A DNA stretch of 64,000 nucleotides, taken from positions 2,199-66,198 of IMG/VR virus record IMGVR_UViG_3300026260_000002, one strand, 5' to 3'. Under the pieces are notes generated by a model that made no database searches, had not been told where the DNA came from, and was given only the letters and a program-made list of their open reading frames with translations. The position numbers and the translations under genes were made by a program. The DNA comes from a virus (taxonomy: Duplodnaviria > Caudoviricetes). Of the stretch, positions 3,554 to 7,606 are shown one piece after another. How positions within the stretch are numbered: the stretch's first letter is position 1; each line of letters opens with the position of its first letter.

Positions 3554-3627
3554 CGGGATAGAAGGGACTTGAACCCTCGACCTCCTGCGTGACAGGCAGG
3601 CGTTCTAACCAACTGAACTACTACCCC
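3554..3627 (-). tRNA. tRNA-Asp(GTC)
   Basis: GGGGTAG acceptor, anticodon arm CCTGC-CTGTCAC-GCAGG, T-loop TTCAAGT; no encoded CCA. Confidence 0.95.
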
Positions 3628-3629
3628 AA

Positions 3630-3703
3630 CTCCCCCGACTGGAATCGAACCAGTAACCCCAAAATTAACAGTTTCGTGCTCTGCCTGATTGAGCTACAGG
3701 GGA
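3630..3703 (-). tRNA. tRNA-Asn(GTT)
   Basis: TCCCCTG acceptor, anticodon loop CTGTTAA, T-loop TTCGATT; no encoded CCA. Confidence 0.95.
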
Positions 3704-3985
3704 ATGAAAGGGGCTTCTCACCCCCCTGAACTACTTGGTTAACAAGGCTAGTCTAACCCCGATCTCCCATTCAGGCAGTCGCGAGTTCGCGAGTGCGGGA
3801 GAATGCTACGATATTATTCGCAGCAGGTGTAGATGTTTTTGCATCTGTTGTTTGCTTATCCAAGCAGGTTTCAGTCACAATCGTAACAACCCGTCTAAAC
3901 CGTGGCACCCCCCTGAATGGAGGTGAGGAGAGTCGAACTCCTGTCCGAGCCTATTCGTAAAGTCACCTATTCCTCAAAAGAGGAA
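3704..3985 (-). ncRNA. ssrA: circularly permuted (two-piece) tmRNA
   Basis: Acceptor piece ends ...GGAC-AGGAG-TTCGACT-CTCCT-CACCTCC-A (discriminator 3918). A 5-nt spacer TTCAG follows. Coding piece starts GGGGGTG-CCACGGTTTAGAC at 3912, giving a G3:U70 Ala determinant. Tag frame 3821-3771 reads ANNIVAFSRTRELATA*, followed by a pseudoknot-like GGTTA/TAACC + GACTA/TAGTT. Confidence 0.92.
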
Positions 3986-4057
3986 TGCCACAAGTAGGAT
4001 TCAAACCTACAGTCTACCCATTACAAGTGGGTTGCATTATCGTTATGCTATTGTGGC
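3986..4057 (-). tRNA. tRNA-Thr(TGT), slightly atypical
   Basis: GCCACAA/TTGTGGC acceptor, anticodon arm ACCCA-CTTGTAA-TGGGT; T-loop TTTGAAT. Confidence 0.85.
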
Positions 4058-4059
4058 GA

Positions 4060-4133
4060 CGATCCAGGTTGGATTCGAACCAACGACCGACTGCTTAGAA
4101 GGCAGTTGCTCTATTCCACTGAGCTACTGGATC
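4060..4133 (-). tRNA. tRNA-Arg(TCT)
   Basis: GATCCAG/CTGGATC acceptor, anticodon arm ACTGC-CTTCTAA-GCAGT, T-loop TTCGAAT. Confidence 0.95.
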
Positions 4134-5282: not shown

Positions 5283-5472
5283 CTACATTCCACTCATCGA
5301 GTGCCTCATGAATAATTTCCTTCAACTCCCGCCGTTCTTCAGGTGTGAATATAGTCTTCTTAACAAATGGCATGGGAGTATAACTGGTTGGTTTATTTGA
5401 TTTACCAGGAAGACTCATGCCCTGTGTATCGATCTTATCCTTCGACATCTTTTGTATCCTTCTTGAATCCAA
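5263..5472 (-). CDS. hypothetical protein
   Basis: 69-aa ORF in coding-strand run. Confidence 0.55.
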   Translation of the reverse strand: MDSRRIQKMSKDKIDTQGMSLPGKSNKPTSYTPMPFVKKTIFTPEERRELKEIIHEALDEWNVDETTEC

Positions 5473-5650
5473 ACGGTGAAGTCTTATCTTCTTCCAGTCT
5501 CAACTTCAGTGCAACAGCACCTAGAGACTCCATAACCTTAAGGATGTCCTCTGTCTTAGCATCACCGCCCAATTCTTTGGCAACATACCAATACTTCTCC
5601 CAAAAAGTATCGCCTGCCTTTTTGTAATCATCTAATGTTAATAGTTTCAT
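5435..5650 (-). CDS. hypothetical protein
   Basis: 71-aa ORF starting just after a terminator. Confidence 0.7.
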   Translation of the reverse strand: MKLLTLDDYKKAGDTFWEKYWYVAKELGGDAKTEDILKVMESLGAVALKLRLEEDKTSPFGFKKDTKDVEG

Positions 5651-5666
5651 AATTAAAAAGAATAAT

Positions 5667-5691
5667 AAAAAAGAGGGGAAGGTCCCCTCTT
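5667..5691 (-). terminator. intrinsic terminator
   Basis: AGAGGGGA-CCT-TCCCCTCT followed by a T tract. Confidence 0.85.
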
Positions 5692-5698
5692 ACTTATG

Positions 5699-5866
5699 CT
5701 ACTTGATGTAGAGTTTTCCACGATAGCAAAAAGTCCCATGAGACTCTTTGGCTTCTGCACAATGTGCATCATACTCCACGCCACGATATGTAGTGTGGTG
5801 AATTTGTGCATTGTGCAAGGCAGATGCCTTTTGGATTCTCGTACGAATGTAGTTGAGTGTGTTCAT
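5699..5866 (-). CDS. DUF4278-like YRG-motif small protein (55 aa)
   Basis: MNTLNYIR...TTYRGVEY...FCYRGKLYIK; AGAGGA SD; not in ORF track. Confidence 0.75.
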   Translation of the reverse strand: MNTLNYIRTRIQKASALHNAQIHHTTYRGVEYDAHCAEAKESHGTFCYRGKLYIK

Positions 5867-5871
5867 GAGTA

Positions 5872-6147
5872 TGTCCTCTGAAGTTAGGGTGGTTTAATCC
5901 CCGTTCCTTCAGTCGTTTGCGTCCCAGTTACATTGTAGGTTTAATACCTCCACTAGATCCTTTTGATAGATCTCTATGATATATTCTTTTTGAGAAGAAG
6001 ATACCGTATTGTTAACTCGTACTTTATCTACCATTTCTGATACATCAGCACAAGTGAAAGCAGCAGCTATTAAAATGTCCATGAGATCAACGCTCCGTTG
6101 CGCGACTTACTTGCGTCCAAAAGGACATGAAGTCCTTTGGATGAACG
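5872..6147 (-). promoter_or_regulatory. glutamine-riboswitch-like element (glnA / Downstream-peptide class) with nested ORF
   Basis: CGTTC-[P2 TCCAAAGGAC/GTCCTTTTGGA]-CGCAAGTA-AGTCG ... CGACT-GAAG-GAACG; downstream CTTCAG complementary to CTGAAG sits beside the SD. Confidence 0.7.
5909..6082 (-). CDS. 57-aa ORF nested in the riboswitch-like RNA
   Basis: MDILIAAAFTCADV...QCNWDAND*; its last codons and stop overlap the aptamer 3' half. Confidence 0.6.
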   Translation of the reverse strand: MDILIAAAFTCADVSEMVDKVRVNNTVSSSQKEYIIEIYQKDLVEVLNLQCNWDAND

Positions 6148-6172
6148 TGTTGTCATGTTACCATGACATCTC

Positions 6173-6179
6173 TATTTAT
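6173..6179 (-). promoter_or_regulatory. T4-type late promoter core
   Basis: ATAAATA upstream of a TGTCATG/CATGACA hairpin and the riboswitch-like RNA. Confidence 0.6.
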
Positions 6180-6188
6180 GCAAGCCCC

Positions 6189-6410
6189 TCACCTGCCACG
6201 TTTCTTTTTGTGACGAGGGTGGGGGTGGTTGCTAATTGGCTTGGTATTCTTTAAGTCCCTCTTGAGTTTCTTCAAGAAGGATAAGTGGTCCCTTATACCA
6301 GGTATCGGGGGTTTCGGAATACCAGTCGATTGTGTCTCGTTTGAATAAAGGAACCTCGGTTGTCTCTTCCAATTTCTTCTCGGCATTGTGATATGTAACT
6401 GGATACCCAA
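6189..6410 (-). CDS. hypothetical basic protein
   Basis: ORF after nrdB (DHLSFLKKLKRDLK); frame uncertain because 6232-6528 overlaps. Confidence 0.4.
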   Translation of the reverse strand: MGIQLHITMPRRNWKRQPRFLYSNETQSTGIPKPPIPGIRDHLSFLKKLKRDLKNTKPISNHPHPRHKKKRGR

Positions 6411-6436
6411 TGGGTATCCGTATCCATTTTGTAATT

Positions 6437-7606
6437 TTATAGCTTAAACCCGCTAAAAGTTTCTGCACTAACATCCTGCTTGATTCCTCCGACGACATAG
6501 GATTCAATCTCAGTTTCCTGAGGGGCATTTTGTTGACCCTTGCTATTTAGCCAGTGCTCTGTCCAAGGCAGAGGGTTGTTTCTAGCAGGGATATCGAATG
6601 CAGGTGCTAGTCCGATTGCTTTCATACGACGATTAGCAATCCATTCAATGTATTGAGAAAGCAGACGCTCGTTAAGACCGATCATGCTACCATTCTCAAA
6701 CAAATAACTTGCCCAATCTTTCTCTTGGGATACTGCGTCAAGGAACATCTGACGCACTGTTTCTCTTTCTTCCTCTACGATGTCCAACATGTCAGGATCA
6801 TCACCCTTCCTCCACTTATAGAGGATCTTCTGGGTCAACGCGAGGTGTTGTGACTCATCCCTGGCAATAAGGGAGATAATTTTTGCTGAACCTTCCATGA
6901 GTTTAAGTTCACCAAAAGCAAAACTACAAGCAAAAGATACATAAAACCGTATCCCTTCCAGTATATTAACATTAGCCATCGCCAGATAGAGTTTACGCTT
7001 AACATCCCTAATAGTCCACTGCGCAGTGGAATGATCACTCCACTCAGGTTTCCACATATTACCAAGTGACCACTCAGTTGCTACCTCAAGGAAGTCATTG
7101 TATGCTTTGCATACTGAAGCAGCACGGTCAAGGATCTTATCATTATCTAATACCGAATCGAAGACCTCTGATGGATTTGAGTATACGTTTTTGATAATAT
7201 GGGTATAGGAGCGGGAGTGAATCTGCTCCATGAATTCCCATACTCCCATACATCCTTCCAACTCTGGAAGACTACAGTAAGGTGAGAATGCCATGCCAGG
7301 ACCACGCCCTTGCACAGAGTCTAGAAGGATCTGATACTTGAGGTTACTGGTGTAGATATGTTTTTGTTGTTCATTCAGTGTCTTATAATCAACACGGTCC
7401 TTCTGTAGGGAAACCTCTTCAGGTCTCCAGAAGTAACCGAGTTGTGTCTGTGTTAGTTTATCGAAGTCGGGATACTTGTATTCATCGTAGCGTTGCATCC
7501 CCAAGGGTGCTCCAAAAAACATTGGTTGTTTCTTGGTGTCTACTTTCTTGTCGTTGAATACAGTCAGTCCCATTGTAACTCCCTTAGATTGTGTGTCTTT
7601 AGACAT
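6437..7606 (-). CDS. nrdB: ribonucleotide reductase class Ia beta subunit
   Basis: FWRPEEV, LLDSVQ, EQIHSRSY, LEGIRFY, RDESQH diiron motifs. Confidence 0.97.
   Translation of the reverse strand: MSKDTQSKGVTMGLTVFNDKKVDTKKQPMFFGAPLGMQRYDEYKYPDFDKLTQTQLGYFWRPEEVSLQKDRVDYKTLNEQQKHIYTSNLKYQILLDSVQGRGPGMAFSPYCSLPELEGCMGVWEFMEQIHSRSYTHIIKNVYSNPSEVFDSVLDNDKILDRAASVCKAYNDFLEVATEWSLGNMWKPEWSDHSTAQWTIRDVKRKLYLAMANVNILEGIRFYVSFACSFAFGELKLMEGSAKIISLIARDESQHLALTQKILYKWRKGDDPDMLDIVEEERETVRQMFLDAVSQEKDWASYLFENGSMIGLNERLLSQYIEWIANRRMKAIGLAPAFDIPARNNPLPWTEHWLNSKGQQNAPQETEIESYVVGGIKQDVSAETFSGFKL

Follow-up and report, generated by a model that had tools for sequence, protein, structure and literature searches.

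Can an RNA that senses a metabolite hold a complete protein gene within one of its helices? The question is raised by a minus-strand element in a 64,000-nt stretch of Caudoviricetes DNA (IMGVR_UViG_3300026260_000002, positions 2,199 to 66,198). This whole stretch is called the window here, and all coordinates refer to it. A preliminary description saw in the element a glutamine-riboswitch-like aptamer around a 57-codon reading frame, ORF1. The comparison of homologues given below points to a small, self-contained operon at 6179-5671 (minus strand), whose leader would be a nested double glutamine aptamer. The outer core would be a type-1 (glnA) aptamer, and its P3 would lead into a second, circularly permuted core whose hairpin contains ORF1; we put the probability of this reading at roughly 0.7. 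Thus, a marine cyanophage leader with two sensor cores, one inside the other, probably senses glutamine ahead of a gene for an IF17-like peptide (Table 1). A search of the literature found no published description of a gene nested in a double glutamine riboswitch.

Table 1. Features of the operon, in 5' to 3' order of the transcript
Feature	Position	Strand	Remark
ATAAATA, T4-type late-promoter-like box	6173..6179	-	upstream of the unit; putative promoter
5' hairpin GUCAUG-guaa-CAUGAC	6151..6168	-	likely transcript start
C1 CGUUC, 5' strand of outer P1 (P1o)	6143..6147	-	invariant in all parsed units with an upstream half
hp1 UCCAAAGGAC-UUCAU-GUCCUUUUGGA, P2 of type-1 aptamer, directly after CGUUCA	6116..6141	-	compensatory changes
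Outer J23 CGCAAGUA (DNA CGCAAGTA): ligand-site CGC and E-loop strand AAGUA	6108..6115	-	invariant in alignment A1
S1 AGUCG, 5' strand of shared helix (outer P3)	6103..6107	-	pairs with 5915-5911
P1i local hairpin G-CAACG-GAG-CGUUG, P1 of inner permuted aptamer	6088..6101	-	covariation
hp2 5' strand UCUCA	6082..6086	-	last A is the A of the ORF1 AUG; pairs with 5926-5922
ORF1, 57 codons, inside inner aptamer hairpin	5909..6082	-	ends W-D-A-N-D-TGA; phrog_504, T4-like gene cluster 430
hp2 3' strand UGGGA (ORF1 codons W-D)	5922..5926	-	covariation
Inner J23 CGCAAA, ligand-site CGC, without E-loop	5916..5921	-	CGCAA at 5921-5917
S2 CGACU, 3' strand of shared helix	5911..5915	-	covariation
GAAG E-loop strand (5910-5907), then GAACG (5906-5902, P1o 3' strand), then G41	5901..5910	-	GGAACGG invariant
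Expression platform, stem CUGAAG (5912-5907)/CUUCAG (5883-5878)	5878..5912	-	covariation and minimum-free-energy fold
AGAGGA, ORF2 ribosome-binding site	5874..5879	-	overlaps sequestor stem 3' end
ORF2, 55-aa DUF4278/YRG peptide, IF17-like	5699..5866	-	motifs TYRGVEY, CYRGKLY
Intrinsic-terminator-like hairpin and U run	5671..5691	-	end of unit

Conservation of the layout

Blastn finds the same layout in 361 phage records, and it is kept in the 188 homologous units that were parsed from cyanomyovirus contigs. In an alignment of 60 sequences, the paired fraction of the nested structure is 99.6%, and both partners have changed in 6 pairs; the covariation counts given here come from related sequences, among which recombination is likely. 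None of 500 shuffled controls reached the observed value, and sliding the partners by 1 to 3 columns brought pairing down to 28-57%; the layout is above the level of chance. Covariation demonstrates the helices of the nested fold at the level of sequence. The comparison of the 188 units indicates that the pairings are under selection, and therefore that the element is probably a glnA-type (type 1) glutamine aptamer with a nested inner core. We infer, in addition, that the ligand is glutamine, in which direction it regulates, and that sensing is coupled to translation.

The gene content of the two hairpins differs among relatives. Either hairpin, both, or neither holds a gene, and all four combinations are found within the 188 units. 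Most cyanophage units have a gene inside one or both hairpins, and in most cyanomyoviruses at least one hairpin of the doublet contains a complete protein gene.

The outer core

The pieces on which the preliminary description was built are present on the minus strand: CGTTC (6147-6143), AGTCG (6107-6103), CGACT (5915-5911), GAAG (5910-5907), and GAACG (5906-5902). Their glnA-type arrangement also holds, with CGUUC/GAACG as P1, a hairpin as P2, CGCAAGUA and GAAG as the strands of the E-loop, and a long-range helix around the ORF as P3. P1o, in which 6147-6143 pairs with 5906-5902, is formed in 60/60 sequences with zero variation. Because neither strand ever varies, P1o itself shows no covariation, and its partner was assigned by exclusion, by the geometry of the linker and E-loop, and by folding the compact forms de novo with RNAalifold. 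Doublets with an altered first CGUUC would give such covariation, and a scan for them gave spurious doublet matches only, in which CGTTGA belonged to upstream coding sequence or to the loop of hp1. In that scan, the C5:G36 swap was seen in singlets only.

The equivalent of hp1 holds a whole gene ending G-R-K-stop in 46 related units. The outer J23 has the signature of the Rfam glnA consensus, CGGAAGUA. At the outer end of the shared helix, J23 lies on one strand and GAAG on the other; both are invariant, or vary between G and A, in homologues. In CU[G/A]AAG, the G/A variation always leaves a stop codon, UGA or UAA. The UGA of ORF1 lies at 5911-5909, and the final codons of ORF1 together with this stop do constitute the 3' core of the aptamer, as had been proposed. 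The C of CGC and the G after GAACG are present in both cores and are invariant, with zero variation in the set. The long-range pair that they would form, between the junction strand and the nucleotide 3' of P1, would be C...G here, which is the type-2 orientation, whereas the Rfam type-1 consensus is G...C (PMC6698751).

The shared helix and the inner core

In glnA type 1, P3 is local; here it is a long-range helix, whose 190-nt 'loop' contains the second core and a complete gene. S1 and S2 occur in 23 combinations with compensatory changes at several positions, among them AGACU/AGUCU, AGUCA/UGACU, and AGCCGAC[U/A/G]/[A/U/C]GCCGACU. In the 19 compact units, pair columns 42/88 are AU in 8, UA in 8, and GC in 1. 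AAGUA is found in unit 1 only and GAAG after unit 2 only, and the nested fold alone places them opposite each other; in singlets of this flavour, AAGUA and GAAG are separated by AGCC-loop-GGCU. Covariation of AGUCG/CGACU and of UCUCA/UGGGA had been named beforehand as a check, and both pairs covary across homologues.

The preliminary description also offered a second, interleaved reading. Its pieces, CGTTGA (6092-6087), TCTCA (6086-6082), TGGGA (5926-5922), and CGCAA (5921-5917), are present and belong to a real second core, but the partner of CGUUG is the middle GCAACG (6100-6096), with which it forms a local hairpin, and not the 3' GGAACG. Therefore, the two cores are nested, with AGUCG/CGACU common to both, and are not rival readings of one 3' half. 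The evidence for the local hairpin, P1i, comes from a swapped base pair. In the 60-sequence alignment, columns 75/88 are GC in 51 sequences, CG in 9, and unpaired in none. Across the 188 units, GGAACGG occurs with CGTTCA in 176 and GCAACGG with CGTTGA in 12, and there are no mixed forms. Thus, the change from G:C to C:G (middle G36/second C5) is joint in 12/12 cases, with at least 7 changes on the downstream-gene tree (independence tree based on 165 nt). A Shine-Dalgarno-like GGAG (6096-6093) stands 10 nt ahead of the ORF1 AUG, and GAG loops are restricted to ORF-holding units.

The stem that encloses ORF1, hp2, is contiguous over 5-8 bp in 136/148 ORF-holding units, with many compensatory variants, and is also present in the unconstrained minimum-free-energy fold. 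The earlier suggestion that this stem includes the start codon of the gene is borne out in 147/148 ORF-holding units, where ATG is at offset 3-5 of the hp2 5' strand. The inner J23 is kept in both ORF-holding units and ORF-free compact units. Against the nested reading, the inner core is without an E-loop, and its P1 loop is only 3-6 nt and must also provide G41, so that this core is at most a candidate for ligand binding. De novo folding of the compact units with RNAalifold gives the nested P1o/P1i arrangement. The doublet appears, from its covariation, to be an interlocked fold whose inner core is circularly permuted.

Family scans and alternative readings

Rfam models, which had been proposed as a further check, do not recognize the element. 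glnA (RF01739, gathering threshold 35 bits) gave no match in the window at E<=10, nor in the 66-kb record at E<=1, and Glutamine-II (gathering threshold 33 bits) gave a match of 18.9 bits that covers the 5' part only (6150-6089). Compact relatives yield two adjacent glnA matches, of 35 and 28 bits, and reach 34-35 bits in one unit only. A custom covariance model (R1, built from the 19 compact units with the nested structure) found the 5' part of the window only, at 15.4 bits, leaving the 165-nt insert unbridged. Family scans miss the element, which an interlocked doublet with a complete gene in one or both hairpins would explain. A pattern scan of genome contigs for the inner junction gave, among the matches listed, chance matches in unrelated bacteria only. 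A type-2 pseudoknot of the 5' CGUUC with the GGAACGG loop of the 3' hairpin was rejected, since it depends on pairing of the first C5 with the middle G36, positions that give a C.C mismatch in the window and all swapped units.

A more familiar arrangement would be two independent aptamers in tandem. Unit 1 (first CGUUC/middle GCAACG) would then be a 5'-UTR riboswitch for ORF1, and unit 2 (second CGUUG/3' GGAACG, with ORF1 in its hairpin) would control ORF2, leaving AGUCG and CGACU as unpaired linkers or tiny local P3 hairpins. This is how the family models divide the RNA, in the Glutamine-II match to 6150-6089 and in the adjacent glnA matches of the compact relatives. The 2010 glnA alignment likewise handles the units singly, and a review lists tandem glutamine riboswitches as 157 doublets, described as pseudo-cooperative, and 4 triplets (PMC9481103). 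However, the tandem register puts C.C and G.G mismatches in both P1 helices of the window and of 11 other units (in the 60-sequence alignment, the same 9 sequences are mismatched in both), whereas in the nested register the changes compensate each other. Of the 19 compact units, 9 have breaks in the local mini-hairpins that the Rfam reading needs, while the inter-unit pair covaries and takes three Watson-Crick forms, and S1 and S2 of the window type (AGUCGC, AACGACU) are incapable of local hairpins. Unit 1 would also carry an AAGUA E-loop strand without its GAAG partner, and a 1-nt linker is too short to return both ends of an 8-bp inter-unit helix to one junction. We consider independent tandem aptamers improbable.

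Alternation between the tandem and nested registers, with the exchange acting as the switch or as a source of cooperativity, seems to us no better a candidate. Its attraction is that 176/188 units have two identical copies of CGUUC and two of GGAACGG, so that either register pairs perfectly, and domain swapping has been seen in a glutamine-II crystal (PMC6698751). Yet the sole variation at P1 positions favors the nested register alone, no other register suits the covariation of the shared helix and the shortness of the linkers, and no tandem-specific sequence feature covaries. Slightly less credible again is the idea that the pieces are real but the long-range fold is rare in vivo since ORF1 is translated; the element would then survive chiefly as a relic or as a scaffold for recombination, in which repeated aptamer halves shuffle small genes, and ORF2 would depend on the local 3' hairpin alone. 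Cassette exchange at repeats would fit the facts that the two units are direct repeats, that gene-holding and gene-free hairpins occur in all four combinations, and that the genes of units L042, L126, and L205 are unrelated; furthermore, a 5-bp stem closing 170 nt is weak alone. Against a mere relic, both the stem that spans the ORF and the shared helix carry compensatory changes, which demand selection for pairing across the gene, nucleotides of the binding core are equally conserved in ORF-holding and ORF-free units, and the start codon is fixed in its position inside the stem in all but one of the 148 units.

Relation to known RNAs

The nested element shares features with both types of glutamine riboswitch, for which the core nucleotides and the C19:G41 pair have been described (PMC6698751). 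With type 1 (glnA, RF01739; the Synechocystis gifB/IF17 leader, PMC6212724; structure 5DDP as cited in PMC6698751), it has in common P1 CGUUC/GAACG, a hairpin after CGUUCA, AAGUA/GAAG E-loop strands flanking P3, a conserved CGN ligand-site strand, a DUF4278 gene downstream, and a helix beside P1 that reaches the ribosome-binding site and forms in competition with the bound state. Among its differences is that Rfam gives no glnA match in the window. With type 2 (Downstream-peptide, RF01704; PMC2864571, PMC6698751), it shares the core nucleotides CGUUC, CGC, and GGAACGG, including those of C19:G41, the setting of marine picocyanobacteria, and a short downstream YRG/DUF4278 peptide. Unlike type 2, it has no H-type pseudoknot of the 5' CGUUC with a 3' hairpin loop, and the local 18.9-bit reading is contradicted by covariation. 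The tandem doublets (PMC9481103; the S-PM2 doublet in the 2010 glnA alignment) have the same sequences in a compact, gene-free form, two units in about 90 nt before a YRG gene. In the literature these are independent and pseudo-cooperative; covariation here points to an interlocked fold, with swapped P1 partners and a shared helix. Phage riboswitches are thought to be rare, and a 2017 survey had only two cyanophage glutamine aptamers (PMC5473149).

Like the tandem glycine riboswitch, the nested element would join two homologous aptamers for one amino acid in one folded unit with one expression platform. However, the glycine aptamers lie side by side and make tertiary contacts, whereas here one core, circularly permuted, is nested in a helix of the other. 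Group I introns hold ORFs in peripheral loops, with the coding frame within a functional RNA fold, and in phage MS2 the 'Min Jou' interaction, a long-range pairing that spans a gene under translation, links that translation to the accessibility of another start site. These are a ribozyme and a viral genomic RNA, respectively, which have no ligand and are not metabolite sensors. If the nested reading is correct, this riboswitch architecture is new, and it would provide a natural case in which translation and ligand sensing compete for the same nucleotides. It would also imply that phages, by way of IF17-like peptides, control the nitrogen status of hosts that are the most abundant phototrophs of the sea. 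The compact natural forms, of about 90 nt, open the structural claim to direct test.

Flanks, expression platform, and ORF2

At the position of the ATAAATA box, homologues have a box that is (A/T)TAAATA-like or is TTGAC-N17-TATAAT. At the position of the 5' hairpin, their sequences differ yet are self-complementary.

The CUGAAG/CUUCAG stem surrounds a small hairpin (5902-5887) in which G40 and G41 take part, and it is incompatible with the shared helix, the E-loop, and P1o. Its pair columns 324/359 are GC in 33, AU in 25, and GU in 2. Of 104 unique 3' segments, 96 have this two-level hairpin as their minimum-free-energy fold; on its 3' side it runs up to the ribosome-binding site, which the sequestor stem overlaps by only 1-2 nt. 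In constrained folds, the nested state is at -74.1 and the stem state at -78.2 kcal/mol, making the nested state about 4 kcal/mol costlier.

ORF2 matches Pfam DUF4278 (E=1.9e-4; homologues 18/18, best E 5.4e-7) and phrog_545 (E=6.7e-30). The YRG motif is found in Downstream-peptide ORFs (PMC2864571), and DUF4278 has been linked to IF17-like proteins; glutamine riboswitches before DUF4278/IF17 genes are ON switches, as shown for Synechocystis gifB (PMC6212724). The earlier proposal that the downstream gene is the target of the riboswitch is thus supported as to the kind of gene, a typical riboswitch-controlled DUF4278/YRG peptide, while its control would follow from the folds described above.

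Proposed mechanism

Glutamine binding would stabilize both cores and the shared helix. The stabilized cores would draw CU-GAAG-GAACGG away from the competing CUGAAG/CUUCAG stem and so free the ORF2 ribosome-binding site (ON), while the inner core would simultaneously bury the GGAG and AUG of ORF1, which would tend to be OFF. To pass through ORF1, ribosomes would have to open hp2 and the shared helix and, on reaching the stop codon, the outer P1 as well, and because of this, ORF1 translation and sensing would be mutually exclusive. Given these overlaps, the preliminary proposal that the transit of ribosomes may gate the sensor is a reasonable one. A reciprocal, translation-gated nitrogen switch is conceivable, although we regard it as a tentative and rather unlikely proposal: inner binding would turn the nested gene OFF, outer binding would turn the IF17-like gene ON, and ribosomes on ORF1 would transiently erase both sensors. 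If such a switch exists, the nesting of genes in aptamers would be a general design principle of cyanophages and not an accident of compaction.

The nested gene

ORF1 matches phrog_504 (E=4.5e-12), and its homologues are annotated as T4-GC 430 in P-SSM7, S-ShM2, and S-MbCM100. Judged by its pattern of substitution, ORF1 is coding: conservation is highest at codon position 2, and the median dN/dS is 0.46. After masking of the C-terminus imposed by the RNA, 124/127 nested proteins fall in one diverse family, which weakens the idea that the nested gene is freely swapped; the few genes unrelated to the others are those of L042, L126, and L205. A search for function gave 0 Pfam matches, the PHROG class 'unknown', and unnamed viral clusters as Atlas neighbors. 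The AF2 model of ORF1, which had no match in the PDB at E<=0.001, is a two-helix hairpin, and Cys11 and Cys51 are invariant.

Genomic setting and layout of the unit

The window, part of a 66-kb IMG/VR virus contig, comes from a T4-like cyanomyovirus and carries nrdA, nrdB, tRNAs, and a tmRNA. All of the pieces named in the preliminary description are found where it placed them, on the minus strand within 6150-5860. From promoter-like box through terminator-like hairpin they form a self-contained unit of ~500 nt with two small genes: ORF1, nested among the aptamer pieces, and ORF2, which follows them and encodes a 55-residue peptide. The unit is flanked downstream by a 71-aa gene (5435-5650, minus) matching phrog_2171 and upstream by a 98-aa gene (6232-6528, minus) with no family match; in other cyanophages it sits between nrdB and talC. 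Three tRNA genes on the minus strand (3554-3627, 3630-3703, and 4060-4133) flank the tmRNA, a phage-encoded, two-piece RNA of the permuted cyanobacterial type, also on minus (RF01851, 122.8 bits, 3710-4001; RF04321, 65.6 bits).

Features of the unit and the neighboring nrd genes, in window positions
Feature	Position	Strand	Remark
nrdA	9932-7599
nrdB	7615-6437
ATAAATA box	6179-6173	minus	upstream of aptamer pieces
5' hairpin	6168-6151	minus	upstream of aptamer pieces
First CGUUC	6147-6143	minus
First hairpin, 10 bp	6141-6116	minus
CGCAAGUA	6115-6108	minus
S1, AGUCG	6107-6103	minus
Inner P1 hairpin, G-CAACG-GAG-CGUUG	6101-6088	minus
A-UCUCA	6087-6082	minus	final A is A of ORF1 AUG
ORF1, 57 codons	6082-5909	minus
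UGGGA	5926-5922	minus
CGCAAA	5921-5916	minus
S2, CGACU	5915-5911	minus
GAAG	5910-5907	minus
GAACG-G	5906-5901	minus
Stem CUGAAG/CUUCAG	5912-5907 with 5883-5878	minus	end at AGAGGA ribosome-binding site
ORF2	5866-5699	minus
Terminator-like hairpin	5691-5671	minus

The nested doublet is widespread in cyanomyoviruses. By blastn, the region is matched in 361 cyanophage records, and the order of pieces is identical in S-CAM22, P-SSM7, S-MbCM100, ACG-2014j, S-ShM2, and ACG-2014d, six phages in which two small genes are annotated, T4-like gene cluster 430 and then cluster 937 or 542. Eighty IMG/VR loci were gathered via the ORF2 protein and 120 more by a pattern fixing only the junction strand and the AACGG of the middle piece (GCAACG or GGAACG); from these, 188 complete units were parsed by script.

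Two cores that appear to share one helix

The sequence indicates a new structural type within a known riboswitch class, for which ligand binding and regulation are predicted. The E-loop strands of the type-1 aptamer are split, AAGUA lying after the first hairpin and GAAG after S2; bringing them opposite one another requires S1:S2 to be P3 of the outer aptamer, which argues for a nested fold. The glnA layout proposed earlier holds, with P1, hairpin, split E-loop strands, and S1:S2 as P3. Singlet aptamers of the same sequence flavor in viral contigs have a compensated P1 (CGUUG...CAACG), and between their CGCAAGUA and GAAG lies a P3 hairpin of the ordinary kind (AGCC-loop-GGCU); the outer core therefore appears to be such a singlet whose P3 loop is replaced by a second core. 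L395, L407, and L431, singlet type-1 glutamine aptamers with these features, lie on viral contigs upstream of other small genes.

By its arrangement, the inner core appears to be circularly permuted, with an open P3 and a P1 closed off by a loop of 3-6 nt starting with G41. It is without an E-loop, since CGCAAA and a single C form its junction strands. Both cores retain the nucleotides that contact glutamine in solved structures: C1, G2, U3, C17-G18-C19, A38, C39, G40, and G41 (PMC6698751).

Nested versus tandem register

Glutamine doublets have been catalogued as tandem, pseudo-cooperative riboswitches (PMC9481103), and the compact, gene-free form had already been recognized as paired glnA hits, with the S-PM2 doublet present in a 2010 alignment. 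In a tandem register, the first CGUUC would pair with the middle piece and the second with the 3' piece. The decisive pair joins G36 of the middle piece to C5 of the second CGUUC: in a 60-sequence alignment it is GC in 51, CG in 9, and never unpaired, and in the tandem register the nine CG sequences, the window included, yield C.C and G.G mismatches. The second, interleaved reading of the preliminary description thus captured a real second core but misassigned the partner of its CGUUG, which is the middle GCAACG and not the 3' piece. Moreover, Rfam's P3 consists of two local mini-hairpins that are disrupted in 9 of the 19 aligned compact units, and the linkers (1 nt from S1 to the middle GGAACG, 0 nt from AAGUA to S1) are too short in the tandem register for an inter-unit helix of 5-8 bp to rejoin one junction at both ends.

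Applied to the same 60 sequences, the nested structure reaches 99.6% pairing, and 6 pairs differ on both sides; none of the shuffles attained these values, and sliding the partners collapsed the pairing. Across the 188 units, GGAACGG occurs with CGTTCA in 176 and GCAACGG with CGTTGA in 12, there are no mixed forms, and the first CGUUCA and last GGAACGG are invariant. The G36:C5 swap needs at least 7 changes, counted on a tree of the downstream gene only (165 nt, with recombination likely). Unguided RNAalifold of compact units also gives an outer P1 enclosing an inner local P1 hairpin.

The S1:S2 helix occurs in 23 combinations with compensatory changes, among them AGUCG/CGACU (78 units); others include AGUCA/UGACU, AGACU/AGUCU, AGCCGAC[U/A/G] with [A/U/C]GCCGACU, and AGCCAACU/AGUUUGCU. 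Within the 19 compact units, columns 42/88 are AU in 8, UA in 8, and GC in 1. Homogenization of repeats was rejected as the cause, since the correlated positions are not equivalent between the two direct repeats. The stem enclosing ORF1 runs unbroken over 5-8 bp in 136 of 148 gene-holding units and has many compensatory variants. Both long-range stems singled out in the preliminary description covary. In a P-SSM7-like subfamily (L094, L101, L107, L129, L137, and others; e.g., L094:3069-3160), the shared helix pairs AGCCGACU with AGCCGACU; two symmetric C.A/A.C mismatches, kept in most members and repaired in some relatives (AGUUGACU), may reflect either protonated A.C wobbles or a weak point that has been tuned.

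Family scans miss the nested variant. Rfam at gathering thresholds gave no match in the minus 6150-5860 region. Of the two models suggested earlier, glnA found nothing there even with permissive settings, and Glutamine-II (Downstream-peptide), the only permissive match, scored 18.9 bits over 6150-6089, where the gathering score is 33. A search of the entire 66-kb record with RF01739 gave no match at E<=1. In a 2017 survey, the cyanophage examples found numbered only two, and phages were concluded to use riboswitches rarely (PMC5473149); our literature search found no account of a fold that is nested or permuted, or of aptamer hairpins containing genes.

Genes within the hairpins

ORF1, first described as a nested ORF, is a real gene. 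It matches phrog_504 (E=4.5e-12) and is annotated T4-GC 430 in isolates; conservation is highest at codon position 2, and dN/dS has a median of 0.46 across a family that is very diverged. The protein has two invariant cysteines, and AF2 confidently models it as a two-helix hairpin (mean pLDDT 83). In 147 of the 148 gene-holding units, the ATG is placed at offset 3-5 within the enclosing stem's 5' strand. The final codons and stop are, as had been noted, aptamer core: nested proteins end in D-A-x-(x)-D-stop because GAC GCA AAx GAC UGA is that core. G/A variation in CU[G/A]AAG retains the stop, UGA or UAA, and the partner in the downstream stem shifts C/U alongside.

A gene can also occupy the first hairpin; it belongs to a 2-Cys family of ~67 aa that ends G-R-K-stop because of GGA CGC AAG UAA. 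All four combinations are present among parsed units: only the second hairpin holds a gene in 118 (the window type), both do in 26, only the first in 20, and neither in 20. Units with both genes (~26) include L097, L111, L120, and L163. The first-hairpin family is weakly similar to the second-hairpin family (blastp E ~1e-3 to 1e-4), and the two may be paralogues from duplication of a unit. In the first hairpin of L087, L089, L140, and L044, the start and stop codons lie in opposite strands of one stem (UCUUAUGG with CCAUAAGA), so that the first and last codons are paired together.

Expression platform and proposed mechanism

The CUGAAG/CUUCAG stem covaries (GC in 33, AU in 25, and GU in 2 sequences). 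It overlaps the E-loop strand and the final two base pairs of the shared helix, and inside it sits a small hairpin, also covarying, to which G40 and G41 contribute. Folded by minimum free energy, 96 of 104 unique 3' segments adopt this two-level hairpin, whose 3' end touches the ribosome-binding site at its first G. Forcing the nested helices on the window RNA gives a best fold of -74.1 kcal/mol, compared with -78.2 kcal/mol for the sequestor stem (the unconstrained optimum); a ligand-stabilized state could plausibly surmount this computed gap of ~4 kcal/mol.

ORF2 has two YRG motifs, with a DUF4278 match in 18/18 homologues tested. YRG peptides of this kind come after Downstream-peptide and glnA motifs (PMC2864571) and are regarded as IF17-like glutamine-synthetase inactivating factors, whose translation is under glutamine-activated control (PMC6212724). 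In the proposed mechanism, glutamine would lead both cores and the shared helix to form, opening the sequestor stem and allowing translation of ORF2. In the inner core, G40-G41 and the loop make up GGAG 10 nt before the ORF1 AUG, itself inside the enclosing stem, and thus the glutamine-bound state should repress ORF1. A ribosome on ORF1 would melt the enclosing stem and S2 and, at the stop codon, cover GAAG-GAACGG; because it would occupy aptamer nucleotides, ORF1 translation and sensing would be mutually exclusive, as the preliminary description proposed. Inner P1 loops starting GAG, which place CGGAG ~10 nt before the nested AUG, occur in 38/94 unique gene-holding and 0/35 compact units, counts confounded by kinship; the loop (6088-6101, minus, and homologues) may double as a ribosome-binding site.
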